Shown piece by piece: positions 21,321-55,990 of a stretch of DNA of 64,000 nt; within the stretch, counting starts at the first letter, position 1; every line of letters starts with the position of its first letter. The notes beneath the pieces are model-generated. The model made no database searches. It was not told the origin of the DNA and saw only the letters and a program-made list of their open reading frames with translations. The stretch covers positions 1,472,001 through 1,536,000 of the forward strand of contig OZ242260.1 in NCBI GenBank assembly GCA_965207065.1. The letters run 5' to 3'. A program made the position numbers and the translations under genes. This DNA comes from a bacterium (GTDB lineage: Bacteria; UBA8248).

Positions 21321-21419
21321 CACCCTGAACACAATAGGCAACTTCCGGTTTGAGCGCCAGATTGTGGCGTGGCGGGATCGTTCGTAATTTGCTCTTCGCC
21401 GCAAGGGATAATATTATTA

Positions 21420-23135: not shown

Positions 23136-23510
23136 GTGTTCGTCGTCGAGGGAGAGACGGCGGAGTTCAGGGTCAGGTTCCAGATACGGCCTTATTACCT
23201 TCGCTATTCGTACCGTACGGAAGATGAAACGGCGACGGGGGGTGAGGATTACAGTCCTGTCGAGGGCACGGTGGAGTTTGCTCCGGGAGATACGTCCCGG
23301 ACGGTTTCGGTAGCGACTCTTGCCGACGACGTTTCGGAGGGTCACGAGACTTTCAGGTTGGTGTTTGATAATCTCAAGATCAAAAACAAGGCGACGATCT
23401 ACGATGCCCTGCGCGGGAGCGGTCCGGAATGGCGTGACCCCGGCCCCGGCGAACTCGCTCTCTTCCCGGGGGAGTGGGCCCTGTACGCGGTGATCAGGGG
23501 GTCGAACTGA
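23136..23510 (+). pseudogene. Calx-beta domain fragment
   Basis: YRTEDETATGGEDYSPVEGTVEFAPGDTSRTVSVATLADDVSEGHETF. Confidence 0.7.
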
Positions 23511-35760: not shown

Positions 35761-36104
35761 CTCCCGGCAATATCACACCATGACAAGGTGACGTCGTATA
35801 TGGACGCGACCGAGCCCGGATGCGCGAAAGTTGCAATGAATCCGCTTATTGGTTGATTACATGTTGCGCAAGAGGGATCCTAGAGAAGATGGGAAAAATC
35901 ATCCAATACAAGTAGTTTCAGCAGAATATGAGGATTTCACAACTGGTGGAAATTGTCGAATGTCTAGATTGATAAATTGAGCGAAATCTGGTGGAAATCC
36001 GCAAAAAATGTCTGTACGCGCTCACCGTCACGGTGTCCTCCTTCAAACCCGCCATCAGGTGCAGCAGGACCTTGGCACTGTTCGCCGTGAATCCCCAGGC
36101 CGCT

Positions 36105-36673
36105 AATACTGGTTCTCACCTACTTCCTGGGCGGATACGTACCACAATCCCGTCGGTGAACAGATAGACGTCCTCGTACGTGCCCAGATCCTGCAACGCG
36201 AACTTCTGATAGTCTTCCCAGAGTCGCTCCCCGAATTCCGAAACCGCCGTGCGCGAAAGTAGCAGACGATCGCTCTCGTCGGTGAAAACTTCTTCAACCT
36301 CGCGGACCGACAGACCGTGTGCCAGAAGCTCCACCGCCAACCCTTCGAGCGTCTCGGTGCGACCCTTGAGATTATCCCGGATATCCGAGTGAAACCCTTC
36401 CCCGTGCCCGGCAATCTGCGGGGACGCGTACTCGATAAACCCTTCCGCCGCTTTCAGACGACCAAGTCGGTGGCCCTAGCCGGGTTCCGGTCCGTGCTCG
36501 TAATATTCCCGGCCGAGAGCGTCGCGGCTTTCCGCCTCCAGCGCTTCTTCCACGATGAGGCGCGTGGCCGGCTTCACCAGGTTGGCTTGCGCATCGGGAG
36601 TCGACAGGCGAACTTCAATCAGGGCGGACAGGGCTTGGCAAGTGTGAATCGATACCTGTCATCACTTCTTCAT
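36105..36673 (-). pseudogene. IS256-family transposase N-terminal remnant
   Basis: RLIVEEALEAE..DALGR.YYE; GLSVREVEEVF; YLFTDG. Confidence 0.7.
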
Positions 36674-36973
36674 GGGTGCCTCCTCTGTTGGATGCTGGCA
36701 CTCACCTGCACGGTTTTATGATGCCTCTGTCGAGGATACATCACTTTCGGAAATTTCCAGCAAGTTTAAGACTTAACAGTCTGTCGAACTTGGCTTGCTG
36801 AGAAGGTCGAAGCGCCGTCGTAGGAGCAATTCTCGGGGTTCCCTGTCATAGATTCGCGTTGGACAGCGATTCGGTGTCAGGAGTCATGCTCGACCTTCAC
36901 TGGCCCGGTGGTGGTCGTATTGGCCGTAGGTAGGCCACGGGACGAGGCGTTTTATTGCCGGAGCACGCCAACG

Positions 36974-37560
36974 TCAGGTTGTGTAGGCGAATGCAGTGTA
37001 GGCTGGCATCACCAAAGACCCCCACTCACCCTGCACCTTGTCGAGACCGCGCAAGTGGAAGTGCCTGAAGAGCATCGCCTGCTTGACGATGCCGAACACC
37101 GGCTCCACCGTCTGTCGGCGCAGGAGATATCGGGCACGCTCTTCGGGCTGCGCCATCTTCGTGCGCATCGCAGCAATCCAGTCTGCCCGAACCGCCGGAC
37201 ATGGCCGGAAGTCGTGCCGACGGCGTTGTCCTTCGGATTCCGTGCCCACCAGAATCCGGCGCCGCGTCCCTTGAGTCGTTCCACATCCTTGACAGTCGCA
37301 TAGCCGCTGGCCGCCAGCACCCGGGTCGGTGCGCCAATCCTTGGCGGAATCGCGTCCACACCCGACACCAATTCCCGGTGGTCGCTCGCATTGTTGCTCA
37401 CCAGCGCACCCAACACCAACCGGCTGCCCTCGGCATCTACCGCCGCCTACGCGTTGTAGGCCTGACGGTACTCGTGCCTTTTGCTCTTGCGCATCAAGGC
37501 GTTGTCCCCATCCGTCAGGTTGATCTGCCGCCTTCTTCGGGCCCCTCCCGCGCTTGCATC
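36974..37560 (-). pseudogene. IS1182-family transposase C-terminal remnant
   Basis: INLTD.DNALM...YRQAYNA; RRQTVEPVFGIVKQ..FRHFHLRGLDKV. Confidence 0.75.
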
Positions 37561-37939
37561 ACATGGTTTCCGTGCCAAGTAAGCTTGCACCATCATCGTG
37601 CGCGACGTGAAATTAATAGAGATTTCCCACGCGCTTCTCGTCAAATTAAATTCTAAGGAATGGTTCAGAGGAATGCGCAAGACCAAGAGATGTTGCGGCT
37701 ATTGCCTGCAAATCTCTGCTTCATCATTTTGTATCAACGCAGTTCGGGCCGATGCACAGGTCTCGGTAATCACATCGTGCCCCGAACAAAGTGTCAGTTT
37801 GAACATGTAAAGCAACGATATCTCGCGGATACGGTCTGTCGAATGTCTATGTGGCGTGAATTTTCGACTTTCATAACCATTTCTCAGATGATCCATGATC
37901 GCGCAGTTTATGGATTGACGCCGCTCGAGTCTGTCCAAC

Positions 37940-38290
37940 CCCGCATAATCTTCTGCCGATTTACGCTGCAATTCCGGCGCGGCTTCGGAGACATTTCTGT
38001 TGATTCGCTTGATTTTCTCTTTGCTTCGGGTACTTTCCATGTGCGGATGATGACCTGTGCGGAGAACATCACAGAACACAACAGGTGAATTCCCGCCTCA
38101 GTTTGCGACCACTTGCGACGCTCGATAGCCTCCATTGCGAGTTCGACCACGAGTCTGTTCGGCGATTTTTCTCGCCTTTCGGCTTCTTTTTCGAGGCGCC
38201 TCCACTGCTCGGGCTTCACCCTGACGTTCTTTTGTATTGTCTGAAGCCTCGGTTTTGCAGCTTCTTTATTGAAGGTTTTCACTCTAATTG
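37940..38290 (-). pseudogene. Small repeated gene, copy 4 (most complete, frameshifted); possible RHH DNA-binding protein
   Basis: TIQKNVRVKPEQWRRLEKEAERREKSPNRLVVELAMEAIERRKW. Confidence 0.55.
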
Positions 38291-38481
38291 ATCGCAAAAC
38301 GGGTCGGAAAATCCCGTTTCCTTGCATCGGGCTCGCTACATTTTGGGCGCATGCATCCTCAAAAAGCCCCGGTCGATGAGATACCAAACGGATAGCCATC
38401 ATAGCGCAGCGCACGCCCATCCGTATTCTCATAGCATACGTGCAGGAAACACCCTGATACCAGATGTATGCCATCAGCATA

Positions 38482-39399
38482 GTGCGCCGTGGAAAGGCGC
38501 CATTCCCTAGCGGGTGCGAATCCCGCCCGGCAACTGTCGCTCCAGCCGGTAGCAATCGGGGCGGGTGATGGAGGCAACGACATGGCCTGAAGCACTCCGA
38601 TGGAAAAGGGCCGCCACGGGCGGCTCAGCGACCATGCGGGCCGCAACGCGAGTGAACGCCGAGCAGGCCTCGAAAATGCATGATGCGAGTGCCGACCCGC
38701 CTATGCAACGGGGAAGGCTGTCACCGGCCGGGAAGCGAGCGACATGAGCACCGGCCGGGTCTCGCCGGGGTAGTGGCGGCGGCACGCATGGAAGATGGGA
38801 ATGGCAGCAACACGGGAAGCCCTGCCGGTGGAGCGCACACTCCAACCGGAACCCCGCGAGGGGCAGGCCGGGCCGGCAGGGTGGCGGATGGGCTCGTAGT
38901 ACCTGAGAGGCCGGGTAACGCCGGCGGAGGAAAGGAGCCCTGGTTCGGGAGCGATGCGGAAAGGGAGGAAGGGCATGACCACTGGCGAGAGCCTATCAGG
39001 GTCGGAAAAGGCTCGGAAACTCCAGACCGTGTTACATGCGAAAGCCAAGGAAGAACCCGGACGGCGCTTCCACGCGCTGATAGACAAGGTGTGGCGCGAA
39101 GACTTTCTGGCCGAAGCCTGGAGGCGGGTCCGCCGCAATCGCGGGGCCGCCGGGGTGGACGGAGAGACGTTCGCGGACATCGAGGCGTACGGCGTGGGAC
39201 GCTGGCTCGGGGAACTGGCGCGGGAACTGAAGGATGGGGTATACGCACCGAAGCCTGTGCGACAAGTGCTCATCCCGAAGAAACAGCCCGGCAAGTTCCG
39301 GCCTCTGGGCATCCCCTGCATAAGGGACCGGGTGGCGCAGACGTCGGCCCTGCTCGTGCTTGAGCCGATATTCGAAGCGGACCTGCAACCGGAGCAGTA
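38482..39399 (+). mobile_element. Group II intron 5' part with RT (from ~38975) truncated by IS256
   Basis: GTGCGCC start; RFHALIDKV, GAAGVDG and RPLGIPCIRDRVAQ motifs. Confidence 0.85.
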
Positions 39400-39428
39400 G
39401 AGTTACTGTCAAATGTTGTGTATGGCCG

Positions 39429-39692
39429 TATGTGGACGGCCCCGTAAATGCAAACATGTTGTTTGAACGATTCAGGGTCTGTGGTCAGGTGCAGTCGTAT
39501 GTCCGACCTCTTGGTGCGGCATATCTCTCACCGCGGGCCCGTATGGAGATGCGCGGATCGGGTCCGAATCGTCCTGGCGAGCTCAAGGGCTCTCGGCCAT
39601 ACCCCGGTTTACCCGACCCTGTCTCATTGACCATTTACCCTTACCCGTCCTCCGACCTGCTCACATTCCTGGATAATCCGTTTGTCTGCCGC
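39429..39692 (-). ncRNA. Predicted bridge/seek RNA region of IS110 copy 1
   Basis: Long 3' non-coding end conserved with 52160-52430; segments at 39594-39602 and 39570-39576 match the flanking DNA. Confidence 0.75.
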
Positions 39693-40504
39693 TCAGGCGA
39701 CCGGCGCCGGTTCCTGGTAGACTTCTTTCTTCGTCATCAGCGCCCATGCGATGCGCGCCATTCGATTCGCCAGCGCCACCGCGACCAGCATTCGTGGCTT
39801 GCGCGCCAGCATCCGGGCCAGCCATGAGCCCGCCGGCGCGCCGCGCCGGACCGCGCTGCGCACCACCGTCATAGCACCTATGTTCAAGAGCCGCCTGATG
39901 TCGCGCTGTCCCATCTTCGACACTTTGCCCAGTCGGGACTTGCCTCCGGTCGAGTGCTGTCTGGGCACGAGGCCGAGCCAGGCGGAGAAGTCCCGTCCGC
40001 GTTTGAAGCTCTCCAAAGGCGGCGCGAAGGCCAGTATCGCCGACGCGGTGATCGGACCGATTCCCGGGATGCTCATCAGACGCCTCGCCTCCGCATCCGC
40101 GTAAGCGCCCGCGTGGAGTTGCCTCTCCAACTCCCTGATCTTCTCGTTGAGTTCGGCAATTTGATCGAGAAGAACCCCGCCCAACTCGCGGACCACCGTC
40201 GGCAGCTCCGTAACCGGGTCTCCAAGAGCCGCCGCCAGGCGAGAGGTATTCACTAGTCCCTGCGGAGCGATGACCCCGAACTCCGCGAAGTGACCGCGCA
40301 ACGCATTGACAGTCTGCGTGCGCTGGCGAACCAGGAGATCGCGCGTGCGGAACATCATCCCCTGGGCCTGCTGCGTTTCGCTCTTCACCGCCACGAAGCG
40401 CATGGTCGGGCGCGAGGCGGCCTCGCAGATCGCCTCCGCGTCCGCCGCGTCGTTCTTCTGACGCTTGACCAAAAGGGTCACACACTGCCCGTTATCATGA
40501 TGGG

Positions 40505-40945
40505 GTGAGGGTTTATTACCGCTACCATCCGCTGGCGGGCTGCCGCGTAACTTGCCTTGGGCGTCGAAAGGCGTATGGGCAGAGGATGTTGATCATCCGG
40601 CATCCGGACGGAACACAGATGCATGTCCCGGAGTGGATGACCAGGCCGGATGCGGCCCTGCTCGAGGTTCGCGACGTCCCGAGAATCTCCCTGCGGGCGC
40701 TTCGTGAATTGCGGAATCTCATCGATGCGTCTCTTCTTGTACCGGACCAGGCCCGGAGGGGAGGAGACGATGAACACCAGACGCCGAAATTCGAAACAGG
40801 GGGAACTGTTTCCCCCGGAACAACCGCCGCACCTGATAACGGACGAAAGACGCGAGGCGCTGATACCGCTCCTGTCGATGACCATCGCAGTGGCCATGGA
40901 AGCTCCGGGACCGGAGAGCCCGACGAGTCGGGGGGCCGGCCATGA
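40505..40945 (+). CDS. Small accessory protein upstream of the LSR
   Basis: YRYHPLAG...DGTQMHVPEWMT...ALRELRNLID; stop overlaps the LSR start (ATGA). Confidence 0.55.
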   Translation: MRVYYRYHPLAGCRVTCLGRRKAYGQRMLIIRHPDGTQMHVPEWMTRPDAALLEVRDVPRISLRALRELRNLIDASLLVPDQARRGGDDEHQTPKFETGGTVSPGTTAAPDNGRKTRGADTAPVDDHRSGHGSSGTGEPDESGGRP

Positions 40946-43017
40946 GGGGTGAGCAAACAAGGATCACCGCCGGCCATCTGGCGCGCGCGGCCTGTGTCTA
41001 CGTTCGACAGTCCTCACTCGGCCAGGTTCGCAACAACCTGGAAAGCCAGCGCCTTCAGTACGGATTGCAGGCCCGCGCGAAGGAGCTGGGCTGGCGGGAA
41101 GTGATGACGATCGACGAGGACCTCGGCCGTTCGGGAGGTGGCGGCGTCGAGAGGCCCGGCTTCCAGAAACTCCTGAGCGCGGTCTGCGAGAACAGGGTCG
41201 GCATCGTGTTGTCCGTCGACGCCTCCCGCCTGTCCCGAAACGGCCGTGAGTGGCATACTCTTCTCGAGTTCTGCGCCGTGGTCGGCTGCCTCCTGGGAGA
41301 CGGGCGCGGCATCTACGACCCCGGTCTGCCCGATGATCGCATGCTGCTCGGCATGAAGGGGAGCTTCAACGAAATGGAAAGCTCGCTCCTGCGCCAGCGC
41401 TCCCACGACGCCCGTCGCCAGAAGGCGGAGCGGGGCGAGTTGTTCCTGAACCTGCCGGCCGGATACGTGAAGGTCGGGCGCGACGCCATCGCGCTCGACC
41501 CCGACCAGCGGGTGCGCGACGCGGTACGGCACGTATTCCGCAAGTTCACCGAGCTGCGGAGCATTCGCCAGGTGTTCCTGTGGTTCCGGCAGGAAGGAGT
41601 CGAGCTTCCGTATCGCTCTCTCGACACCGGCGTTCATGGATGGCGGGTCGCCTGGAAGCTGCCGGTGTACAATACCGTCCACCAGATCCTGACCAACCCG
41701 ATCTACGCGGGCGCCTACGCCTACGGTCGCAGGAGGCGGCGGAGGGTGATCGAGGAGGGGCGCCAACGCATCGTGAACGAGGTCAGGCGCAACCCGGAGG
41801 AGTGGGCGATATTGATTCGCGACAACCACGAGGGCTATATCTCCTGGGAGGAATATGAACGCAATCGCGGCCTGATCGCGGCCAATGAGCCGAAAATCAA
41901 GGGAGCGGTGCGCGAGGGCGGCGCGTTGCTGACCGGCTTGTTGCGATGCGGTCATTGCACCCACAAACTCCAGGTCGTCTATTCGGGGAACAGCGGGGTG
42001 GGCCGCTACCTCTGCCAGGGCAGGCGGTCGCACACGGATGGTACAACCTGCATCTCCTTTGGTGCGGGCGACGTCGACGAGGCCGTCGCCGCCGCCGTGT
42101 TGCGAGCGGTAGAGCCGCTGGGAGTGGAAGCCGCGCTCGGTGCGCTCAAAGAGCGCGGAAAGGAAGCAGCCGAACGCGCCCGTCTGGCGGAGCTGGCGCT
42201 CGAGGAAGCCCGGTTCCAGGCGGAGCAGGCGCGGGCGCGGTTCGAGGCGGTCGATCCCCGCAACCGCAACGTCATCGGCAATCTCTCGCGGGCATGGGAG
42301 GAGCGCCTCGAGGTCGTGCGGGAGCGGGAGGCCCGGTTGGAGGCGGCGCGCTCACAACTCCAGCTTCAGGAGCCGACACCCTGCGAGCGAGCCGCGTATC
42401 TCGCCCTCGGCGCCGATCTGGAGCAGGCCTGGAACCATGAGAACGTGACGACCGCGATGCGCAAGCACATTCTGCGCGCGGTGCTCGTTGAGATCATCGT
42501 GACCGTCTCGGCCGAGCGGATCGATCTCGTCCTGCATTGGGAGGGCGGCGATCATACGGGACTCTCCGTACGCAGGAGAAAGAGCGGACTAACGCGTATC
42601 GCGGCGGACGCCGACACCGGGACCATGATCCGGGAACTTGCCCGCCTCATGCCGGACCGGGCCATCACCGCGTTCCTGAACCGGGCCGGGAAGCGGACCG
42701 GCAAGGGCAATGCCTGGACCGAGGCGCGCGTACGCGCCTGGCGTTCCCATCACGGCATAGCGGTCTATCGTGATGGGGAGCGACAAGAGCGCAACGAACT
42801 GACACAGACCGAAGCCGCGGCGAGGCTGAAAGTCAGCGCCAGAACAATGAACCGTCTGATCAAGCGCGGCGTTGTTCCGGCCCGCCAGGCCTGCAAGGGC
42901 GCGCCCTGGGTGATATCCGCAGATGCTCTCGAACTGCCGGATGTTGCCCGGGCGCTGAAAAAGGGAGTATACCCGCCGGCACCGGATGATGAACAGAAAA
43001 CCTTTTGTTTTCAATAA
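40942..43017 (+). CDS. Large serine recombinase
   Basis: YVRQS, DEDLGRSG, SRLSRN, recombinase domain, CGHC zinc ribbon, coiled coil and C-terminal HTH. Confidence 0.92.
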   Translation: MRGEQTRITAGHLARAACVYVRQSSLGQVRNNLESQRLQYGLQARAKELGWREVMTIDEDLGRSGGGGVERPGFQKLLSAVCENRVGIVLSVDASRLSRNGREWHTLLEFCAVVGCLLGDGRGIYDPGLPDDRMLLGMKGSFNEMESSLLRQRSHDARRQKAERGELFLNLPAGYVKVGRDAIALDPDQRVRDAVRHVFRKFTELRSIRQVFLWFRQEGVELPYRSLDTGVHGWRVAWKLPVYNTVHQILTNPIYAGAYAYGRRRRRRVIEEGRQRIVNEVRRNPEEWAILIRDNHEGYISWEEYERNRGLIAANEPKIKGAVREGGALLTGLLRCGHCTHKLQVVYSGNSGVGRYLCQGRRSHTDGTTCISFGAGDVDEAVAAAVLRAVEPLGVEAALGALKERGKEAAERARLAELALEEARFQAEQARARFEAVDPRNRNVIGNLSRAWEERLEVVREREARLEAARSQLQLQEPTPCERAAYLALGADLEQAWNHENVTTAMRKHILRAVLVEIIVTVSAERIDLVLHWEGGDHTGLSVRRRKSGLTRIAADADTGTMIRELARLMPDRAITAFLNRAGKRTGKGNAWTEARVRAWRSHHGIAVYRDGERQERNELTQTEAAARLKVSARTMNRLIKRGVVPARQACKGAPWVISADALELPDVARALKKGVYPPAPDDEQKTFCFQ

Positions 43018-43389
43018 CGTAGAGGGGTGACTTAGTATGACTGGCGTTTCACGTAAGGCTTCACGTAGACCGGTGGCATGAGCTTCACCTCGTGACCGAG
43101 CCTGCCGATCTCGCGGCCCCAGTAGTGCGCGCTCGCGCACGCCTCCATCGCAATCAGGCAGCGCGGCTGCGAAGCCAGAAAACCCGGTACATTCCCCCGG
43201 GTCAACTTCTTGCGAAACGCGACCGAACCGTCTATGCGCGCGCCATGGAGTTGAAAACCATGTTTCACCAAGTCGATACCGATGATGTGAACCTGTTCCA
43301 TGGGGTCCTCCTTCCGGGCGGTATGAAGACGCCACCTCGCCACAGTGTGATACCTGCCAGGAGGGGTCGTCCACCCCATCGTCCTGAGT

Positions 43390-44004
43390 TCAGCGGCCTC
43401 CCTGCCGGTTTCTTTTTCGTTCACCCCATCGATGAACCTCACGTCGGTGATCACGTCGGCCAGATGACGCAAGCCGCTTAGCCGCCCCCATCGCTTCTCG
43501 GCGCTCATGGCGAGTTGATGCACCAGGCTCAGCGCCGTCTTCTCGCTCAGGCAGTTCCTCGTCTTCGCCGTTCGCAGCCGGATCGTGGCGAAGGTCGACT
43601 CGATGGGGTTCGTCGTCCGGATACTCCGCCAGTGCGCCGCCGGGAAGTCGTAGAAGGCGAACAACTCCTCGCGGTCCCGCGCCAGACACTCGGCGGCCTT
43701 GGGGTACTTCGCCTCCCAGGTGGCGAGAAAGCGTTCAAACGCCTTCTCCGCGCGCTCGCGGGCGTCGGCCCCCCACATCTCATACAGCATCGGCCTCGCT
43801 TCGCTCTGAACGCTTTTGGGCAGCTTGTCCAGAACGTTCGCCGTCTTGTGAACCCAGCAGCGCTGCGCCCGGGTCTCGGGATACACCTCGGCCAGCGCCG
43901 ACCAGAACCCCAGCCCCCCGTCGCCCACCGCCAGCTTCGCCGCCTTCACCCCCCGCTCCCGCAGGCTCAACAGAACCGCCTTCCAGCTCTCCTTCGATTC
44001 CCGG
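43390..44004 (-). pseudogene. IS256 transposase 3' half
   Basis: ESKESW, VGDGGLGFW, QRCWVHKTANVL and RTTNPIESTF motifs. Confidence 0.88.
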
Positions 44005-44191
44005 TTATGTAGAGCTCTACATAACCGGGATTATGTGGAGTTCATGGTTATGTGGAGTTCATCCTGGAGTTCGTTGTTTTTGTGTGGTTTGCGGGTAGCG
44101 AACTCCACATAACTTTTGCATCGTCTCTCCTGTCCGCGTCGTTTCGGAGAGCGGCGGCAAGACAGGCCTGCCGCCGCTCTCCGTTCCCTCA

Positions 44192-45202
44192 TCAGCACCT
44201 CGAGCGTTGTCCGTCTCCATTGCCTGCGAGCATGGCGAGCAGCTTGTCGGGCGCCCGGAAGCGACCCGGCCGGAGGTCCGGCAATCGGGCGCCGTCGAGC
44301 ATCTCGAGTTTTTCTGTGGGGTCGGCGTGCAGATAGACCTCGGTGCTCTGGATGGTCGCATGTCCGAGCCAGAGGGAGACCTTGCGCATGTCCCCGGTTG
44401 CCTGAAGCGTATGCATCGCGCAACTGTGTCTCAGGGTGTGGGGCGTCACGTGTTTGCCGGCGAGGCCCGGCTCCGCCCTGGCCGCGTTCTTCAGATGTTT
44501 TGCGAGTATGACGTTGAACCCCCAGCGGCTCAGCCTTCGCCCGAGCCGGTTGTGGAACAGTTCCGGGTCGCCTTCGGGGTCGCGCAGGCGGAGCCATGCC
44601 TCGATGCCCGAGCGCGTCTCTTTCCAGAGCGGAAGTCTCCGCTCGCGGCGTCCCTTGCCCATGATCCGGACGCCGGCCGGCGCCCGGCGGTCGTAGTCGT
44701 CGAGCTTCAGGGCGGTCAGTTCACTGACGCGCAGTCCGCAGGCGTACGTCAGATGGAGCATGGCCCGGTCACGTATTCCGTCCCTTCGCCCCGGGTCGGG
44801 CGCGTCGAGCAGGGCCTTGATCTCGGCGCGGGTGAGCCAGGCCACCAAGGCCTTGTCTGCCTTCTTCTTCGGGATCAGGGCGATCCGGACGGCTTGCTCC
44901 AGGGTGCCGGGCTCGCGCCATTCGACGAAGCGGAAGAACGCCTTGACGGCCGCGAGGCGCGCGTTGCGCGTACTGACGGCCGCGCCCTTGCGCTCGACGT
45001 GCTCCAGGAAGGCGAGCACCATATCCGCGTCGATCTGCTCGAGAGCAAGCTGCGAAGGTCTCACCCCGAGCCTGCGGGCGACGAAGCGCAGCAGCAGCGA
45101 CAGCGCTCGCGAGTAGGCGTCCACCGTGTTCGGGCCGGCGCCCTTCTCAAAGGGGAGATGCTCGGACACGAAGGCGCTTGCATGCCGGGCCAGCGGGGTC
45201 AT
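44192..45202 (-). CDS. RIT tyrosine recombinase C
   Basis: GLRVSEL, GKGRRER, HTLRH, LGH and Y motifs. Confidence 0.9.
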   Translation of the reverse strand: MTPLARHASAFVSEHLPFEKGAGPNTVDAYSRALSLLLRFVARRLGVRPSQLALEQIDADMVLAFLEHVERKGAAVSTRNARLAAVKAFFRFVEWREPGTLEQAVRIALIPKKKADKALVAWLTRAEIKALLDAPDPGRRDGIRDRAMLHLTYACGLRVSELTALKLDDYDRRAPAGVRIMGKGRRERRLPLWKETRSGIEAWLRLRDPEGDPELFHNRLGRRLSRWGFNVILAKHLKNAARAEPGLAGKHVTPHTLRHSCAMHTLQATGDMRKVSLWLGHATIQSTEVYLHADPTEKLEMLDGARLPDLRPGRFRAPDKLLAMLAGNGDGQRSRC

Positions 45203-46116
45203 GACGCGTCCTCCCCATGGAAGGCTTCCGTCCGCCGGGCGACTTCTCCCAGCAGCGCCTCGGTGCTCTCGTGATACCACCAGGTATGGGCGACGGAGGC
45301 ATGGCCGAGCCAGGCGCTGAGAGCGACCATGTGCCGGGCGACCGCCCGCCGCCCGGAGCCGCAGGCTTCGAGCGAGCGCACCGCGAAGGTGTGGCGCAAG
45401 TCGTGGATACGCGGGTTGCGCCCGTCTTCCCGCGCACCTGCGAGACCTGTGCGCGAGCGCATCCGGCGGAACACGGCGCGGGCCGCGGAAGGACCCATGC
45501 GGCCGCGGCCGTCGGCCAGGAAGAGGGCTTCGGTATCCGCCGGCACGCGAACCCGCGCCCGGAGGTGACGCGCGAGTTGCGTTTCGACCGTGGGATGGAA
45601 GGGCAGCAGGCGCCGTCCTCCACGCTTCGCCGTCCTGACCATCAGTCCCTCCGGGGTGACGTCATCCACGTCGATCGCCAGCGCCTCGCAGCCCCGCAGT
45701 CCGGTGGCGGCGATCAGCCCGAACAGGATCCGGTACTGGCCCGGGACCGGGCACCTGATCGTGGCGCACTCATCGGCCACGGCCAGGAGCGCGGCGATCT
45801 CGGAAGCAGAGTAGATGTAGGGCTTGGGCCGCACCCGGTGCGCGCGGGGCAGGACGTCCGCCGGAGGCGCCTCGTGCCGGGGGTCCTCCACGGCCATCGC
45901 CAGGGCGAAGCGGCGCACGAGCAACACCAGTCTGCGCCGCTGCAGGGCCGATGAGGAACGGCGCGCCCATTCGAGGACGCTCTGCGTGTTGACGTGGCTA
46001 TCGCCGCGGGCCTGCGCGAAGGCGGCGTAGTTCGCGAGACGCCGGGCGTCCTTGCGGAAGCTGCGCCCGGCGGCGCGGATGGAGGCGACGTATCGCTCGA
46101 CGGCATCGACGATCAT
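45199..46116 (-). CDS. RIT tyrosine recombinase B
   Basis: PYIYS, TGLRGCEA, HDLRHTFA and WLGH...TWWY motifs; ATGA overlaps. Confidence 0.9.
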   Translation of the reverse strand: MIVDAVERYVASIRAAGRSFRKDARRLANYAAFAQARGDSHVNTQSVLEWARRSSSALQRRRLVLLVRRFALAMAVEDPRHEAPPADVLPRAHRVRPKPYIYSASEIAALLAVADECATIRCPVPGQYRILFGLIAATGLRGCEALAIDVDDVTPEGLMVRTAKRGGRRLLPFHPTVETQLARHLRARVRVPADTEALFLADGRGRMGPSAARAVFRRMRSRTGLAGAREDGRNPRIHDLRHTFAVRSLEACGSGRRAVARHMVALSAWLGHASVAHTWWYHESTEALLGEVARRTEAFHGEDAS

Positions 46117-47354
46117 GACGCGCCTCCCGGCCAGGGCTGCGCAATCTCGCGAAGCCGTATCGGGTCCGTTCTGGCGTAGATGGAAGTGGTCAGTATACTC
46201 CTGTGCCGCAGGAGCGTGGCGATGGTCTCCAGCGTGGCGCCGTCTTCGAGCAACCGGCAGGCCACCGAATGGCGAAGCAGGTTTACGCCTCCCGATGGAG
46301 TATCCTCCAATCCCGCGCGGCGCAGGGCGCTCGCGACGATTGAGCCGACGACGGACGAGGAGGAGAAGGGACGCCAGGGCGGACGCATACAGAGGAACAC
46401 GTGCGGGTCGTCCAACGGCGGCCGCCCGTCCTTCAGCCAGACGAGGATGGCGTCGCCGACCTCCTGGGGCAGGGGCAGCGTGGCCTCGCGACGCCCCTTG
46501 CCCGTGACGCGCAGACGTCCGCGCCGCCAGTCGATCTGCTCGAACGTCAGGCCGCCGGCGTCGCCCGCCCTGAGCCCCAGCCGGGCGACCAGGAGCAGGA
46601 AGGCGAGGTCCCGCCGTCCGATCGCCGTGCCCGTGTCGCAGGAGGCGAGGAGCCGCTCCACCTCCGCCGCCTTCAGGCCGCGCGGAACGTTGTCGCGCCG
46701 CGGCATGACGACGCACGGCACGGCTCTTGCCAATATCGCCGGACACCGGTCGAGCGCGGCGTTGTACCCGAGCCAGGAGCGTAGCGCCGTCGCTCTCGAC
46801 TTCCGGGAGGGCAACTTCCCGGACAGACCCGCGTGGGAGAACGCCGCGCGAAGGTTCGCGGCGTCGTAGCGCGCCGGGTCCGTGCCGACCAGCGGCAGCA
46901 GTTGGCTCAGCGCGCACTCGTAGCGCCGCAGGCTCGAGGCGGCCAGCCCCTTGTGCCGCCCAAGCCAGTCGAGCCAGGCCGCGACCTCCGGCGCCCGTTC
47001 CGGCGTTCGCACCGCCGGAGCATCGGTCACCCCGCTCCCTGAGAGGAACCGCACGAACCTTCGCACCCCGTAGAGGTACCTCTTGCCGGGCGGACGGCGG
47101 CGCGCCCCGGGACAGCGGCACTCATGAGCGCCGAAGCGAGCCACATCGCTCTCGACGGCGTCATCCGGACATCTGCCCGTCAAGTGAAGCCAATGGCAAA
47201 AATGCCGGGCTGCCTGAACGTATCCCTCCACCGTCGAGCAAGTGTGATCGAGTTGGAACAGATGATGCCGGTAGGCGTCGACGTGCCGGGCGTGCGGCCC
47301 CATGTCCATCAACCAGCGTCGTGTGACAGGATCGAATCGTGTCGTATCGGGCAT
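46113..47354 (-). CDS. RIT tyrosine recombinase A
   Basis: RLGLRAGD, GKG, NLLRH and LRH...YA motifs. Confidence 0.9.
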   Translation of the reverse strand: MPDTTRFDPVTRRWLMDMGPHARHVDAYRHHLFQLDHTCSTVEGYVQAARHFCHWLHLTGRCPDDAVESDVARFGAHECRCPGARRRPPGKRYLYGVRRFVRFLSGSGVTDAPAVRTPERAPEVAAWLDWLGRHKGLAASSLRRYECALSQLLPLVGTDPARYDAANLRAAFSHAGLSGKLPSRKSRATALRSWLGYNAALDRCPAILARAVPCVVMPRRDNVPRGLKAAEVERLLASCDTGTAIGRRDLAFLLLVARLGLRAGDAGGLTFEQIDWRRGRLRVTGKGRREATLPLPQEVGDAILVWLKDGRPPLDDPHVFLCMRPPWRPFSSSSVVGSIVASALRRAGLEDTPSGGVNLLRHSVACRLLEDGATLETIATLLRHRSILTTSIYARTDPIRLREIAQPWPGGAS

Positions 47355-47500
47355 CGTAACCTCCTGTTGTGAATAGGCGCCCGAAGCGCGGGCGCGGACA
47401 GGAGAGACGATGCAAAAGTTATGTGGAGTTCGCTACCCGCAAACCACACAAAAACTACGAACTCCAGGATGAACTCCACATAACCATGAACTCCACATAA

Positions 47501-48132
47501 TCCCGGAAGCCCGGCTCCAGGGCCAGGAAGCGCTTGCGGCCCCGCGCGTCGCAGCCCACAACCACCAGAAGACAGCGCCGCTCCCCGCTGCGCACGTTCA
47601 CGTAGATGCCGTCCGCCCACAGATACGCGAACTCCTCGTCATCCCACGCCCGCTCGCGCCACTGCGCGTACTCGCGCTCCCAGCCCTCCTTGAGACGCGA
47701 GACCGTCGACGGGGACAAGCCCCCCACCGACTCGCCGAACAGCGCCCGGAGCGCCTCATCGAAGTCGTTCGTCGATACCCCCTTCAGGTACAGCCACGGT
47801 ATCACCGCCTCCACGCGCCGCGTCTTGCGCAGATACGGCGGCAACAACTCCGAGCGGAAACGCCGCCCCGAACCCGACCTGTCCCGCGTCCGCGGGACAC
47901 GGACACGCACCCGACCCACTCCCGTCAATACCTCCCGCGACGGCAGATAGCCGTTGCGCACCACCGCGCGACGACCCTGCGCGTCGTGTTCGCCCGCATG
48001 TTCTGCCAGATAGGCTTCCAACTCCGCTTCCACCGCCTGGCGGATGATTCGCTGCGCGCCCGCGCGTACCAGTTCGCTCAACTCGTCGCGATAGGCTGGA
48101 TTCCGGAAGGGAATCGTCGTATCTTCTCTCAT
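47501..48132 (-). pseudogene. IS256 transposase 5' half
   Basis: VRNGY, VPRTRDR, LYLKGVST and YLWADG motifs. Confidence 0.88.
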
Positions 48133-48322
48133 GGTGGCGCATCTCCTTGTGCTGAATGACCGGGCTTCTGACAACCCTATTTCAGCAGGATGCGCCGCCT
48201 TCTTCAATTCAGCCCATACACAAGTTCTGAGAGTAACTCCAGTATATACGATGATTTTTGCAAAAGGAAAAATTGGTGATTGGTCGTAATTGCATAAGGC
48301 ATATACTCACTTGACTAACCCA

Positions 48323-49291
48323 CTATCTATCAGGCCATATTTCAGCATCCTCGCCCGGTTCTTGATTTGGCCTGAAATCCAGCAGGTAGGTTTCGGGGTC
48401 GATTTTCGAGAACGTAACATCTGTCCGGCCATACTCGATGAGGTGATGCCTCGTCACATACACGCCAGAACCAACACGTAGACGCGCCCTCAAGTAAGCA
48501 CCGAGCAAACTGTTGTCCTGTGTAGTGTGCAATCCCTTTCCGGCATCTTGAGCGCGAACACATATGAAGCTGTCGCCATCATCCGTAAGAACCGTGAATT
48601 GCTCAAACCTGTCAGGGAAGAATCCACTACGCCCCACGCTTGCGGGAATGTTGATGTAGGCTTGGTTCGGGTTTCTCCCAGACCTTTGCCCCCAGTTAAT
48701 GCCCGATCTGGTAGGCGTCTCACCTTCTCTCGAAAGAAGAGTGAGGGTAACGCTTTCAAGTGGGCTTCCCGTCTCAAAACCCTTCCGGCTTTGCAGCAAG
48801 GTGATCTGAGTGTCGATATGGGGCTGAATGCAGTCCGATGCGTTCCTGAGAATGAGGTTGTGGAAGTCGTTTGCATCGCATGAATCGGCTGGGGACATGA
48901 CCTCTATTTGCGCCCTTCCGAATCCCGTCATAGTATAGTTGGCGGAGCCGCAGAAAGCCTTTATCGGCTCTCCTTTGGCATTCAACCACACATACGATTT
49001 AGCATGAACTGGATTGCCTCGAACCACGTATCGGCAAATGAAGTCCGTATCCCAGGACGGATGATCCATCATTTTGCAGAATGCGGAATGCTGGGCTTCC
49101 TCTATCCCGTGTTGTATCGTCATGCCGATTATGAGTTCTATCGAGATGTTGAGGTCTAGTTCCTTCAGGTGCTCCATATGCCTGTCGGCCATATTCGCGG
49201 TAGCGAATCCGCTGACAATACGCAGGCGCCCTCCGTTCACGTCATACGCGGGCGATAGCAGGACTTCACGGAAGAGGTCTTCGTGGATCAT
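48323..49291 (-). CDS. PLD-family type II restriction endonuclease (NgoFVII-like)
   Basis: IVSGFA, HAKSY...GSANYT...E; C-terminal SGINWGQR..RNPNQAYI domain. Confidence 0.82.
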   Translation of the reverse strand: MIHEDLFREVLLSPAYDVNGGRLRIVSGFATANMADRHMEHLKELDLNISIELIIGMTIQHGIEEAQHSAFCKMMDHPSWDTDFICRYVVRGNPVHAKSYVWLNAKGEPIKAFCGSANYTMTGFGRAQIEVMSPADSCDANDFHNLILRNASDCIQPHIDTQITLLQSRKGFETGSPLESVTLTLLSREGETPTRSGINWGQRSGRNPNQAYINIPASVGRSGFFPDRFEQFTVLTDDGDSFICVRAQDAGKGLHTTQDNSLLGAYLRARLRVGSGVYVTRHHLIEYGRTDVTFSKIDPETYLLDFRPNQEPGEDAEIWPDR

Positions 49292-50373
49292 ATTGTGAGT
49301 TCATAAGCAGGGACGTCATGCTTGACGAGTGAATTCAGGACGGCGCGATAAACGACCTCCGCGCCCTTCGGTGGAACGGCCATGCCGATTTGCTTTCGCA
49401 CGGATTCTTTCCCGCCCTCAAAGACAAAGCTGTCGGGAAATGTTTGGAGTCTCGCCCTTTCTCTATTCGTCAAGGCGCGATTTTCTTCCCAATGATATAG
49501 ATGCGTTCCACCGCCACCGGAACCAGTAACCGTATAGCTTGGCGCATCCGGCTTGAGTCTTCTGTAAATTTGGCTGATGGTTGCGCCGCTCTTGAGGTTC
49601 AATTTTAGATGCTTGGGCAAATCAGCCGTGAAGGCGTTCTCTCCCGGCTTGATATGTTTCAACCTCTCGACAACATTTCCAGACTGGTTTGTGCGCTCGT
49701 TGTTGGTCGCATCATCCGGTATGTCGCTCAATGCTTCTTTAGCCGTATTGAAATTATCCATGTGTGTGGGCGCAGGATGCTCGAAAGAATCAATGCCCAG
49801 GTCTTTGCGAAAACCGACCACGAACAATCTGTGGCGCGCTTGAGGCACTCCGTATTCCTCTAGGCGATAGGTGTGCGGGAAAATCGCATATCCGGCTTTT
49901 CGCAGGGAAGACAGGATGATGGCAAAGTCTTTATTATCACCGCTCGACTTGATGCCGCTCACATTCTCGGCTACGAAAAATGCAGGTTTCTTCGCCTTGA
50001 GCGCACGCACTCCCCAGATGTAAAGGCCACCATGCTGGCCAGATATACCCCGTCGCTCTCCTATTACGCTGAAATCATTGCATGGGAACCCGAAGGCCAG
50101 CCCGTCAATATCCGCCAGTTCCTTGAAGTCCAAGTCCTTCACATCCCCGCACATGACACCGCCTTCCGGCAACGGGATATTATTTTCGAGCGTCTTGCAA
50201 GCATCCGCGTCCCTGTCGTTTACCCACACGTGAACGAAACCATGCCCGCCCACCTTCGCGTTGTGCGCGCCCAGCGTCATGCCTCCTGCACCAGCAAATA
50301 ATTCACCTATCCGATAGGTCTTGTGATCCGGAGATGGAGCCATAGCGAGCGCAAGCTGATTGTCGAAGCTCAT
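49288..50373 (-). CDS. DNA (cytosine-5) methyltransferase
   Basis: ELFAGAGG, GFPCNDFS, ENV, YGVPQARHR, RERARLQTFP and QIGMAVP motifs. Confidence 0.95.
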   Translation of the reverse strand: MSFDNQLALAMAPSPDHKTYRIGELFAGAGGMTLGAHNAKVGGHGFVHVWVNDRDADACKTLENNIPLPEGGVMCGDVKDLDFKELADIDGLAFGFPCNDFSVIGERRGISGQHGGLYIWGVRALKAKKPAFFVAENVSGIKSSGDNKDFAIILSSLRKAGYAIFPHTYRLEEYGVPQARHRLFVVGFRKDLGIDSFEHPAPTHMDNFNTAKEALSDIPDDATNNERTNQSGNVVERLKHIKPGENAFTADLPKHLKLNLKSGATISQIYRRLKPDAPSYTVTGSGGGGTHLYHWEENRALTNRERARLQTFPDSFVFEGGKESVRKQIGMAVPPKGAEVVYRAVLNSLVKHDVPAYELTI

Positions 50374-51296
50374 CCGGTAAGCTCCCGCCAAGAGAGTTTC
50401 CCGCAGGTGATGCGGCTGATGATGTTTTCACATCGGATGCCTGAGCTTCGCTCTTTCCTCATGTTGAATCGAGCGGAGTATTCGTCCACATAGCGATGCA
50501 AATGCTTCGCGCTCATCTTGTAATAGACGCCGATATAACCGCGCTTGAGCAAGCTCCAAAAGCTTTCCACGCCATTCGTATGCGCCATGCCCTTCACATA
50601 CTGGCCTACGCGGTGGTTCACCATGACATGATGATAGAGACGGCCTAGATGCCGATAGGAGAGAAACTCATCCGTTGAAATGACCGACCCGGATGCGACC
50701 GACTTGAGGACTTCCCTTGCTATGGTGCGCTTCTTGGTGTTCTCGACTGGACGGGCCACAATATCTCCGCCTCGTTGTAACATCGCCAGGACGGGTTTCT
50801 TCGTTTTTAGACTGCGCCCCTTGGTTCCTCCGGTGCGCTTGTGTTTATGCTTGTTGGCCTCTCGACCCCCGATATAACTTTCATCGACCTCAATCGTTCC
50901 CGAGAGCTTGGGAGCCTTTTCGGTTGCGCCAAAGGCTTTTCTGATTCTGTGTTCCATGAACCATGCCGTATTGTATGCAACGCCAAGCTCACGCTGCAAC
51001 TGCGTAGCGGGAATGCCTCTGCGATTCGAGGACATGAGCCATATCGCCACGATCCATTTTCGGAGAGGAACTGGAGAATCCTGAAATATCGTGCCGATTC
51101 TCACAGTGAATTGATCACGGCAATCAGCGCACTTATACCGCTTCCCATCGCTGAAAGCATAGACCTTGCCCGTGCTTCCACACTTAGGGCAATACATCCC
51201 ATGCCGCCACCTGATTTGCGCGATGTACTTGTGAGCCGCTTCCTCGTTCGGTATGTTTTCGTATAGCTGATTCAGGCTGTCAAAACTTATTTCCAT
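50370..51296 (-). CDS. IS1595-family transposase
   Basis: CPKCG/CADC zinc ribbon, EVDESYIGG, STDEF, VNH and HTNGVESFWS motifs. Confidence 0.93.
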   Translation of the reverse strand: MEISFDSLNQLYENIPNEEAAHKYIAQIRWRHGMYCPKCGSTGKVYAFSDGKRYKCADCRDQFTVRIGTIFQDSPVPLRKWIVAIWLMSSNRRGIPATQLQRELGVAYNTAWFMEHRIRKAFGATEKAPKLSGTIEVDESYIGGREANKHKHKRTGGTKGRSLKTKKPVLAMLQRGGDIVARPVENTKKRTIAREVLKSVASGSVISTDEFLSYRHLGRLYHHVMVNHRVGQYVKGMAHTNGVESFWSLLKRGYIGVYYKMSAKHLHRYVDEYSARFNMRKERSSGIRCENIISRITCGKLSWRELTG

Positions 51297-51554
51297 GACC
51301 TTCCCTCCCTATGATGATAACAATATACATCATTTAATTGGGTTAGTCAAGTGAGTATATGCCTTGCATAAAGGTACACTCTACGTTACGTCTGTTCGGT
51401 ATTTCTTTTTTGCTCCTTATTCCCTATGTCCAAATCTTCGATCCACACGGAACTAACTGCGCCGTCAATATTATTATGTTCAGCTTACCACGGAATGATC
51501 TCGCAGCTGACTAGATACTGAGATAATCACTATCATTGGCACCAGAAGGCTGCG

Positions 51555-52432
51555 GTGCCATCTGGCGGAGTTCGGGCTCATCGCTCCAAAAGGGGCCGGT
51601 TCATCTCACATGGTTGCTGTTGGCAGTGAAAGGTCTGGACTCGGGTCTGCCGGAGGCGGTGCACGAACTGGGCGGGGTTCTGCTCGCGTAGATTGCCAGC
51701 CTGAAGGAGAAGATACAGGAGTTGGAGGGGCAACTGCGCGCGAGCGCGCGCGAAGACGAGGAGGCGAGACACCTGATGAACATCCCGGGGGTCGGGTCGC
51801 TCTGCGCGTCGGTGATACAGGCCTTCGCGCCGCCGATGGAAAGCTTCCGACACGGGAGGGATTTCTCCGCCTAGATCGGCCTCGTGCCCCGACAACACTC
51901 CACGGGCGGCAAAACGCGGGTGGGCAGAATATCAAAGATGGGCCAGCGCGACATCAGGCGGCTTTTGATCATAGGGGCCATGGCGGTAGTGGGTTGGGCG
52001 GTCCGGCGCGGCGCGCCGGCGGGTTCATGGTTGGCCCGGATGTTGGCGCGCAAACCTCTTATGCTGGTCGCGGTGGCGCTGGCGAATCGAATGGCGCGCA
52101 TCGCTTGGGTGTTGATGACGAACAGGGAATTCCACAAGGAGCCTGTGCCGGTCATCTGAGCGGCAGGCGAGTGAATATAGCCGGGAGGAATGTAAGCAGG
52201 TCGGAGGACGGGTAAGGGAAAATGGTCGACGAGACGGGATCGGGAAAACCAGGGTACATTCGAGAGTTAACAAGCTCGCGAGGCCGATTCGGACCCGGTC
52301 CGCGCATCTCCATACGGGCCCGCGGTAAGAGTTAAACGCCGCAAACGAGAGGTCGGACATACGACTGCACCTGACCACGGACCCTGAATCGTTGAAATAA
52401 CATGCTTGTATTCACGGGGTCGTCCACATACG
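51555..52432 (+). mobile_element. IS110/IS1111-family remnant (5'-truncated, internal stops) with intact 3' non-coding end
   Basis: GLVPRQHSTGGK...VALANRMARI; end CGTCCACATA|CG as in copy 1. Confidence 0.85.
52160..52430 (+). ncRNA. Predicted bridge/seek RNA region of IS110 copy 2
   Basis: Homologous to 39429-39692; guide GTACATTCG (52254-52262) is the reverse complement of the flank 52431-52439. Confidence 0.75.
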
Positions 52433-52618
52433 AATGTACGACAGAGCCTGACCGTATTGCGACGAACCCTCCGAAGAAAACGCTTGCATTCTAGTGGGCG
52501 TCCATGTTCATAAATATACGATTGGGTGAACGCGACCTCCCATCGACAGCGACTCGTTTGCTTTTGTTGCCAAGTCAGCGCATGCCACTTAACGAGATGT
52601 ATCAGTGGGAGTGAGGAA

Positions 52619-54777: not shown

Positions 54778-55134
54778 ATGTGGACACAATGATTGTACGA
54801 CTAAAACTTTTGCTTTGTTCGGGTGAGCTACTGTCGATGGGATGGACACAGAATCTATCTTGCAAACTGGGCCCGATCATTGTTTGCAGCAAGTGGAAAG
54901 GGGTTCCAATGAGAAGAAGAGCGGAGATGAGGGATTGAGTGTCAAATGAACCACGTGCCAAAATCGCTACATGAAACCGAAAATTATTGGTGTTTGGGTC
55001 CAGGTGTGGATGCGGGAAGATCGCGGCATATTTTCACATTGCTGAGGAATTCATGGAATTGGGGATAGGGCGATTGGATGCATCGTCGTTTTCCCAGATA
55101 GGGTTTTATCGTTACAGCGTCGGCGTATTTTGTC

Positions 55135-55461
55135 TTGGCCATGCGTTTGAATTATTGTAAAAAGGCATTATTAAAAGAAAATGTTACAGGGCATAAATTT
55201 GGAACCTTATACAAGGCAATAAACGATTCGCGAAGGAGCGAGCTTGAAGATATCATTGTTGGTGAAGGATGGTCGTCAGTGGACGAGTTCCACAAATTCC
55301 TGCTTAAAACAATTAACCCCGTGAATAGAAAGTATTTTGATGAGAGTAGTGGGTGGGATATTTGGAGTCATGATGGCATTGGAAATGTAAACCATAAGTT
55401 GTGGCCGGGCTTAGTTCAATTGTGGAAACGAGTACACGATTACGCCGCGTCTAAAATTTGA
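55135..55461 (+). CDS. Hypothetical protein, probably the 3' part of a disrupted gene
   Basis: Low-GC ORF with natural-looking composition; no clear start. Confidence 0.35.
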   Translation: MAMRLNYCKKALLKENVTGHKFGTLYKAINDSRRSELEDIIVGEGWSSVDEFHKFLLKTINPVNRKYFDESSGWDIWSHDGIGNVNHKLWPGLVQLWKRVHDYAASKI

Positions 55462-55990
55462 AAAAATCCCAATCTTTCGAACTGATCCTTCGCCCGTTTT
55501 CAGACGGCGGGGGGGGGGTCAGACTGGCGGGGAATCTTTGTAGTTTGTTGATAGTATTTTGGATGTTAGTTTTTTCGAGCTTCGTTGAGGATTTGCTTAT
55601 CTGCAATACGTAATCAAAACGAAAGCGGATGAATTATAATTTGTGCGTATCCTAGCGGGCCCGTGTCGGTGTAACCGCGCAGCCGTTCGTCCAGCGGTAT
55701 ATCGGTATTGTCGTTAAACGCGGTCATGGCGCGCGAACATAAGGAAAGAACGAGTGTCCGTTCAATCGTTATTTCTAGCGCGGAATATACACCAGTGAAG
55801 AGCCCGCGCCCGCGCCGGCGAGTGGGTCGCTCATCGATTCGACCTGAAATCAAGGGGATTTTGCAGAGAAAAAATGACGCCGGAAGATACAGGAACAGGC
55901 GCTACGGAAAAAACCGATAAATCCGAAAGCCCGGGATCGAACCCTCAAAAGACTCTTTCGTTCACGCCCCTGTACCCGCCGCGCCCGGCC

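Follow-up and report, generated by a model that had tools for sequence, protein, structure and literature searches.

Within a 64,000-nucleotide (nt) stretch of the bacterial genome assembly GCA_965207065.1 (contig OZ242260.1, positions 1,472,001 to 1,536,000; hereafter the window, whose own numbering is used unless a genome position is named), we analyzed an insertion sequence (IS) of the IS1111 subgroup of the IS110 family, here called copy 1. It occupies positions 39429-43379 on the minus strand and lies within an IS256-family element, next to one of the terminal repeats of that host. Copy 1 is, very probably, an IS1111-type element with a predicted guide RNA of the bridge RNA or seekRNA type that has two internal loops and is aimed at the DNA word CTCAGGA-CG-GCCATAC. 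The anatomy of the element, the matches of the guides to the flanks and the element end, the covariation, the conserved RNA structure and the presence of an empty site support this directly. Transcription of copy 1, processing of its RNA, circle formation and recombination would be expected by analogy with characterized relatives.

The present length of copy 1 is 3,951 base pairs (bp) because a large-serine-recombinase element landed in its transposase gene; with an intact sibling copy as the reference, its original length was 1,368 bp. That sibling aligns to copy 1 as bases 1-339 and 331-1368, with about 2.57 kilobases (kb) of foreign DNA between the two blocks. An initial annotation, made from the sequence, had treated the whole of 39400-43390 as a copy of an IS110 element; the family was correct and can now be narrowed to the IS1111 subgroup, while 40468-43040 belongs to the foreign insertion. 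The parts of the element are as follows:

43302..43379, minus strand: left non-coding end of copy 1, 78 nt, opened by ATGGG (43379-43375)
43374-43363, minus strand: left subterminal repeat GTGGACGACCCC, a left-end motif kept in 80 related loci
43041..43301, minus strand: N-terminal transposase piece (MEQVHIIGID...VKRQ), 93% identical to sibling copies
40468..43040, plus strand: large-serine-recombinase element, about 2.57 kb, splitting the transposase of copy 1, with junctions mapped against the intact copy
39693..40466, minus strand: C-terminal DEDD transposase piece (...KNDAAD to the stop codon), PF02371 E 3.9e-23 and PF01548 1.5e-09
39429..39692, minus strand: 3′ non-coding region of copy 1, 264 nt, encoding the predicted bridge/seekRNA-like RNA (from alignments and consensus structure)
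39432..39443, minus strand: right subterminal inverted repeat GGGGCCGTCCAC; the 3-nt extension ATA comes next (39431-39429)

Read on the minus strand, copy 1 starts with ATGGGGTGGACG at 43379 and ends with GCCGTCCACATA at 39429. Its subterminal repeats are 12 bp long and reverse complementary at 11/12 positions (12/12 in the sibling copies), and the terminal extensions are CGATGGG on the left (7 nt, core counted) and ATA on the right (3 nt). The transposase gene is split at about codon 87, after ...YVKRQ, with both pieces otherwise open, and its stop codon (39693-39695) is followed by 264 nt before the right end of the element at 39429. Taken alone, the N-terminal piece has no Pfam match, while the C-terminal piece is collinear with the intact sibling from sibling base 331. 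The intact sibling protein (P0001, 341 amino acids) scores 322 bits, with a cutoff of 140, against the NCBIfam model NF033542, 'IS110 family RNA-guided transposase', and the transposase motif, GLVPRQHSTG or GLVPRQHSSG, has the G..P....S/T-G form of the IS110 family. Elements of the IS1111 family are described as having 11-13-bp subterminal repeats, extensions of 7 nt on the left and 3 nt on the right, a long non-coding region 3′ of the gene and a transposase of 330-350 amino acids (Siddiquee et al., 2024, PMC11187229). With its guide RNA 3′ of the gene, subterminal repeats, 7/3-nt extensions and 341-amino-acid protein, copy 1 is, on sequence grounds, a member of this subgroup.

The left junction of copy 1 reads CTCAGGA-CG at 43388-43380 and the right junction CG-GCCATAC at 39428-39420, both on the minus strand. 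Against these, the non-coding region holds the following words:

43380..43388, minus strand: left target half CTCAGGA with the second copy of the CG core (43381-43380), as read from the sequence
39426-39420, minus strand: right target half GCCATAC, adjoining the CG core copy at 39428-39427
39594..39602, minus strand: right target guide GTATGGCCG, the reverse complement of the core plus the right flank (CGGCCATAC)
39570..39576, minus strand: left target guide CAGGACG, repeating the final seven bases of the left flank, core included
39543..39548, minus strand: candidate left donor guide CTCCAT
39496..39502, minus strand: right donor guide ACATACG, reproducing the final 5 nt of the right end and then the CG core

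Direct reading confirmed every string and coordinate that had been proposed for the two target guides and the junctions, and the claimed perfect matches of both guides to the flanks are 9/9 and 7/7. The element ends in ...CCACATA and then CG, in agreement with the proposal that ACATACG matches the element end. The other donor guide had been described as matching only partly; the pairing of CTCCAT with the left end ATGGGG needs one G.U pair. In nearly all rows of the alignment described below, the two bases after the left target guide are AT, the same pair with which the element opens, and this segment therefore matches the post-insertion left junction over 9 nt.

These matches were compared across relatives. 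A scan of species-representative genomes gave 80 loci with 60-82% identical transposases, of which 10 further copies from one genome (L056-L064, L068) were left out; both ends were recognizable by patterns in 50 of the remaining 70 loci, and 44 had enough flank, which together with three copies from the present genome made 47 elements. A separate 44-sequence alignment combined four copies from the present genome with 40 relatives, six near-duplicates among 46 eligible relatives having been dropped. In the 47 elements, the dinucleotide next to the left end equals that next to the right end, being mostly CG or TG and also AG or CA, and the guide matches stand at set distances from the right end. 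The left guide matches exactly over at least 7 nt in 35/47 elements versus 6.6% of shuffled pairings, and the right guide matches over at least 7 nt in 22/47 versus 2.5%. The 44-sequence alignment has a conserved scaffold and hypervariable guide columns. Here the 9-nt right target guide matches its cognate flank at a mean of 7.28 positions versus 4.43 for non-cognate flanks, with a perfect 9-mer in 0.1% of 1720 non-cognate pairings, and the 7-nt left target guide has a cognate mean of 6.67 (29/40 perfect) versus a non-cognate mean of 3.19 (1.3% perfect). Copy 1 has both perfect matches, at homologous columns of the alignment. The 7-nt right donor guide is perfect in 36/40 cognate pairings versus 13.9% of non-cognate ones, and it covaries with both the element end (ATA, ACA, AGA or AAA) and the core (CG, TG, AG or CA).

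The guides lie in the loops of a conserved structure, whose extent is:

39483..39632, minus strand: structured RNA core, with an outer stem of 39632-39628 paired with 39487-39483

The RNAalifold consensus of the 44 sequences contains 29 pairs in six helices. The target-binding internal loop is bounded by the stems 39619-39612/39562-55 and 39607-05/39566-64, with a hairpin at 39592-39579 between the two guides, and the donor-binding loop by the stem 39539-36/39508-05, with a hairpin of its own at 39534-39516, such that target and donor guides are both presented in internal loops. Compensatory double changes occur in 18/29 pairs, versus 3-7 when the partners are slid by 1-3 columns, and 97.7% of cells form pairs, versus 26-44% under the same displacement; the observed structure values were reached by 0/500 shuffles. 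Many G.U pairs in the consensus fit the transposase strand only. In the helix adjoining the target loop (39605-39607/39564-39566), copy 1 pairs G with C at a position where its 95%-identical siblings pair A with U, which is a compensatory double change within one genome. For the fold of the non-coding region, which the initial annotation had offered as a check together with an alignment of the two copies in the window, the alignment (89% mean column identity) and the consensus structure held up, and the folds of the single sequences, discussed below, did not.

We read copy 1 as working like ISEc11 and ISPa11 because its guide order and the location of its RNA in the right end match published IS1111 systems. 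By analogy with ISEc11/ISPa11 and IS621, the element would excise as a circle whose abutted ends share the CG core. In the first loop of the RNA, the 9-nt segment would pair with the right target half and core (top strand) and the 7-nt segment with the left target half and core (bottom strand), while in the second loop the 7-nt segment would match the element's own right end plus core. A DEDD recombinase loaded with this RNA could then pair the circle junction with the DNA word CTCAGGA-CG-GCCATAC, and strand exchange would take place at CG. A candidate promoter element lies close to the right end:

39448..39453, minus strand: TTGCAT, a conserved -35-like hexamer, in which CTTGC is invariant or nearly so in the 44 sequences

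This hexamer stands 17 nt before a TA+CG+AT hexamer that would form only at the circle junction, an arrangement that may correspond to the junction promoters reported for IS110/IS1111-type families (Siddiquee et al., 2024, PMC11187229). A scan of the integrated sequence at 39380-39900 for sigma-70-like promoters found none. The RNA library of public run X13 contains a 253-nt contig that spans 39400-39641 with a single mismatch and so takes in the IS256 repeat, the element end and both loops. Figures for runs X13 and X14 are identical, and the two may be one data set; in them 39864-43106 has no RNA-contig cover, which is not evidence of silence.

Further copies in the same genome differ in their guides. 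A whole-genome DNA search with the non-coding region (4.48 Mb, one contig) gave five good copies, namely copy 1, a second copy in the window (copy 2) and the full-length elements L002, L003 and L004, of which the last two are identical except for one base. Copy 2 consists of:

51551..52430, plus strand: copy 2, a 5′-truncated relative, 79% identical to copy 1 outside the guides
52254-52262, plus strand: right guide of copy 2, GTACATTCG, matching the core plus right flank CGAATGTAC at 52431-52439
52280-52286, plus strand: left guide of copy 2, GAGGCCG

The guides of L002, GTACCGCCG and CCCGCCG, match the flanks of L002, and those common to L003 and L004, GTCTGGCCG and TGGGCCG, match theirs; in every genome copy the guide words stand at equivalent alignment positions, and each matches its own available flank. 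The earlier claim that each guide matches its own flank thus stands for both guides of copy 1 and for the right guide of copy 2, the left flank of copy 2 having been lost. Likewise, the scaffold is conserved and the guides differ, as had been noted: the non-coding regions of copies 1 and 2 have 89% mean column identity, with differences clustered in the two guide stretches and one hairpin loop, and the 44-sequence structure agrees. As for the proposal that copies 1 and 2 form a natural reprogramming pair, their guides do differ and match the flanks, although the copies are only 79% identical and guide-specific divergence between them is not significant (Fisher p about 0.1). For these reasons the best reprogramming series is copy 1, L002 and L003. 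Outside the 16 guide positions, copy 1 and L002-L004 are 94-96% identical, and between these copies the guides differ at 4-6/16 positions (Fisher p 0.011 to 3e-5; for the comparisons of copy 1 with the others, 0.011 to 0.0012). Target change by RNA-guided recombinases could be studied in this compact natural series, with near-identical scaffolds and three guide sets in one genome, each with occupied and empty sites; copy 2 is a more distant fourth. The four reconstructed 14-mers (for copy 2, guide plus flank) each occur uninterrupted in the genome, and the copy 2 word, predicted partly from its left guide, occurs once, with about 0.03 expected (14-mer, 9 Mb on two strands, equal base frequencies). 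The transposase genes of L003 and L004 are intact and that of L002 has one in-frame stop. L002, L003 and L004 are hosted by a multi-copy unit of about 8 kb (at least eight copies), at two intergenic sites about 900 bp apart. Copies of this unit, 80-90% identical, lie at genome positions 4442336-4451703 (L088) and 16361-23336 (L109) and at least six other places, with genes for an HU-like protein, a DUF4143 ATPase, a YspA-type SLOG protein and a UvrD-like helicase, among others; Pfam and Rfam searches of the unit did not assign its nature.

The host of copy 1 is itself a mobile element, with the following parts:

39401 to 48239, minus strand: host IS256-family element, recognized by PF00872 in two pieces and by terminal repeats
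39401..39428, minus strand: outer right terminal repeat of the IS256 element, ending with one CG core copy (39428-39427); GAGTTACTGTCAAATGTTGTGTATGG, agreeing with the 48239 end at about 22/26 positions
43389..48239, minus strand: rest of the host element, its left terminal repeat ending at 48239
43390-44024 and 47507-48132, minus strand: pieces of the IS256 transposase gene, split by an element at 44025-47506

The two pieces of the host transposase that match PF00872, the profile of Mutator-type DDE transposases, have E values of 1.4e-32 and 1.4e-29 and cover profile positions 21-201 and 217-376, and the terminal repeats, GAGTTACT..TTGTGTATGG, of about 26 bp, lie at 39401 and 48239. The CG core stands 8 nt after the stop codon of the IS256 transposase (43392-43390) and at positions 28-29 from the outer end of the IS256 element, just inside the repeat of about 26 bp. 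This makes the inner 7 nt of the repeat the right target half, consistent with the original claim that the target overlaps the inner edge of the repeat, while the left target half is unique IS256 sequence. Since the word lies 8 nt past the stop codon and reaches only the inner 7 nt of the repeat, the insertion left the IS256 gene and the outer repeat unbroken. The initial annotation had set beforehand the test of whether the reconstructed site exists empty in an IS256 copy, and it does: CAGGACGGCCATAC occurs uninterrupted once elsewhere in the genome, in the right end of another IS256-like element, a 3′-terminal fragment that is 92.8% identical and has the same surrounding repeat. Contigs joining 39426 to 43380, the form of an empty IS256 end, are present in 4/4 public runs examined and may come from a paralogous copy.

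Whether IS256 ends form a class of targets, as the ends of Tn21 do for IS4321/IS5075, is a separate matter. We lean slightly towards the view that the guides are real and that the IS256 location is incidental, the target being a 14-16-bp word carried by one IS256 lineage. Among about ten IS256-like right ends in the genome, one is occupied and one holds an identical empty site, the remaining eight or so carrying variants with 1-3 changes or no site; the junction word has no match in 43 other genomes of the order; a metagenome scan with it gave 12 exact hits, which we judge to be chance because none is preceded by an IS1111 end; and an IS256-like transposase lies within 2.5 kb in 0/80 related loci. 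Against an incidental location, L002, L003 and L004 lie in multi-copy DNA too, several relatives are found in short repeats, and contigs from runs X5 and X13 hint at the composite of copy 1 and IS256 in a second context. The 1,399-nt contig from X5 contains the same junction of IS1111 and IS256 repeat at 99% identity and continues into sequence unlike the window, as does the RNA-library contig from X13. These contigs could reflect the composite in a second context or a ride inside the IS256 element. The case for IS256 ends as a preferred target class is thin, consisting of one insertion and one identical empty site. At the level of titles and abstracts, with the supplementary target tables of the 2024 papers outside the comparison, literature searches gave no IS110 or IS1111 element with an IS256-end target, and an IS256 end as an IS1111 target, here with one insertion, appears to be unreported.

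A less probable account, and one that we regard as doubtful, is that copy 1 did not insert at this locus but rode here inside a transposing IS256 element or came by recombination between two IS256 copies. In its favor, no clean 8-9-bp IS256 target duplication is seen at the flanks; a group II intron is interrupted at 39400, inside its reverse-transcriptase open reading frame, by the IS256 end, and its sequence does not pick up again past 48239; contigs in other runs, as described, show the junction with a different outer flank; and the insertion spares the IS256 gene and outer repeat. The missing duplication and the unresumed intron mean that the region is rearranged or misassembled, and misassembly at repeats is possible in a genome derived from a metagenome. 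In addition, such a history is compatible with an RNA-guided mechanism and is no alternative to RNA guidance. Any move of the IS256 element predates the second insertion into it, which has broken this copy. A bolder reading is that the right end of a still mobile IS256 element would serve as a carrier on which the IS1111 element rides, its guides being aimed at a word placed after the IS256 stop codon but before the functional outer repeat. On this reading, at least three re-aimings of the guides by a single lineage in this genome, at 94-96% identity and each time at multi-copy mobile DNA, would point to fast, selection-driven retargeting to 'safe' repeated hosts. We consider this improbable; if it were true, riding would have left its first trace in the contigs from other samples, where this junction stands next to a different outer sequence.

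It is very improbable that the matching segments are copies derived from the target by gene conversion or imprecise excision, which would record the history of insertion rather than direct it. Counting for it, both guides have changed together between 95%-identical copies, and the support for a guide role here is drawn from sequence comparison. The segments, however, are placed over 140 nt away from both element ends, in an internal loop of a structure that covariation supports; one guide is sense and the other antisense, overlapping at the core, as in seekRNAs and bridge RNAs with experimental proof (Siddiquee et al., 2024, PMC11187229; Durrant et al., 2024, PMC11208160); and the predicted sites exist empty elsewhere in the genome. 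Chance complementarity, although the words are short (7 and 9 nt), the region is GC-rich and single-sequence folding is not significant, is effectively excluded for copy 1 because perfect matches are so rare in non-cognate pairings, and the permutation controls refute it, with matches recurring at equivalent columns in the four distinct guide sets of the genome and in most of the 40 relatives.

Several observations weigh against a working, RNA-guided copy 1. Folds of the single sequences of both copies are no better than those of shuffles (z -1.64 and +0.11), and no Rfam family matches the guide-RNA regions in 36000-56000 at E values up to 1, where the search returned only group II intron matches and two weak chance hits. 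The elements compared are related, with near-duplicates among the 47 elements and the 44 alignment rows, so that the counts overstate independence. The 6-nt candidate left donor guide has a cognate mean of 5.21 versus a non-cognate mean of 5.00; with almost no covariation, it shows no real signal and is not distinguishable from conservation. The RNA-library contig from X13 documents presence in the library, from which strand, ends and true transcription cannot be read, and it may be DNA carry-over. Finally, because its transposase is split by the serine-recombinase element, copy 1 is unable to transpose unaided, and a sibling copy would have to supply the transposase.

Among the closest characterized systems to copy 1 are ISEc11, ISPa11 and ISKpn4/ISPst6, which likewise have a DEDD transposase of 330-350 amino acids with a long downstream non-coding region, 11-13-bp subterminal repeats with 7- and 3-nt extensions, and an RNA in which two short segments complement one target strand each (Siddiquee et al., 2024, PMC11187229). 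In these seekRNAs, as in copy 1, the top-strand match lies 5′ of the bottom-strand match and the two overlap at the insertion point, the reverse of the order in the IS110 group (PMC11187229). Close relatives of ISEc11 type also differ in guides and targets, and natural reprogramming has been published for ISEc11 versus ISXne4 (PMC11187229). The lineage of copy 1 differs in holding three guide sets in one genome at 94-96% identity, copy 1 being known from sequence, and while the published seekRNA targets include a short linear site, attC sites, REP sequences and Tn21-type repeats (PMC11187229), copy 1 targets the inner edge of an IS256 repeat. For IS1111 elements, bridge RNAs with target and donor loops are described within the right end (Durrant et al., 2024, PMC11208160). 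The bridge RNA of IS621 and the IS110 group shares with copy 1 the two loops, one for the target halves and one for the element ends (Durrant et al., 2024, PMC11208160; Hiraizumi et al., 2024, PMC11208158), as well as a 2-nt core common to target and donor and covariation of guide and target across relatives (PMC11208160). In contrast to that group, copy 1 has its RNA in the right end rather than the left, a reversed guide order and long, 12-bp subterminal repeats, and only its right donor guide clearly covaries.

Like IS4321/IS5075, copy 1 is an IS1111-family element inserted into another mobile element's terminal inverted repeat, with position and orientation fixed. For IS4321/IS5075, both 2024 papers cite Partridge and Hall (2003). 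Their host is a Tn21-family transposon with a 38-bp repeat and their insertions number in the hundreds, nearly 900 (Siddiquee et al., 2024, PMC11187229), whereas the host of copy 1 is an IS256-family IS, its site lies at the inner boundary of the repeat and one insertion is known. An IS256-family end would join the mobile-element ends that serve as landing sites for IS1111-type elements. The novelty is modest: the mechanism and natural reprogramming were already known, the picture of how RNA-guided IS110/IS1111 systems work is unchanged, and what is added is an IS1111-family member, its landing site in an IS256 end and a guide series of three steps within one genome.

The genome also has three IS1111-type left ends that are more distant (72-80% identity) and without a guide region, at 2260464 (plus strand), 85271 (minus strand) and 338435 (plus strand). 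The element at genome position 2260464 has an intact gene for a 341-amino-acid transposase and has lost its guide RNA, as the non-coding region of this element breaks off some 60 nt past the stop codon.

The elements nested in copy 1 and in its IS256 host contain the following:

40505-40945, plus strand: 146-amino-acid open reading frame in the serine-recombinase element, with a weak DUF5372 match
40942-43017, plus strand: 691-amino-acid large serine recombinase with Resolvase, Recombinase, Zn_ribbon_recom and C-terminal HTH_17 domains
44025-47506: element with three tyrosine recombinases, 3.5 kb, splitting the IS256 transposase gene, with 114-nt terminal inverted repeats that are 99% complementary

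The serine-recombinase element is single-copy in the genome and inserted at the conserved ...YVKRQ|KND codons; its two junctions have a similar 12-nt word in common, identical at 9/12 positions, and crossover probably took place at a GT dinucleotide. Relatives of its recombinase, at 36-55% identity, are found in only 2/50 other genomes of a phylum set of 51. Contigs that skip 2583 bases (40457 to 43041, and 40467 to 43051) are present in runs X5 and X1 and may come from the intact siblings. In the second element, the three consecutive tyrosine recombinases (about 413, 305 and 362 amino acids) account for three PF00589 proteins, a layout that we take to be that of a 'recombinase in trio' element. 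Two group II introns lie at 38508-39400, the one cut by the IS256 end, and at 53003-53742. Between them, at 48296-51365, perfect 27-bp inverted repeats enclose a 3.07-kb unit with an IS1595-family transposase, a C5 cytosine methyltransferase and an NgoFVII-like restriction endonuclease, and this unit is an IS with a restriction-modification system as cargo.

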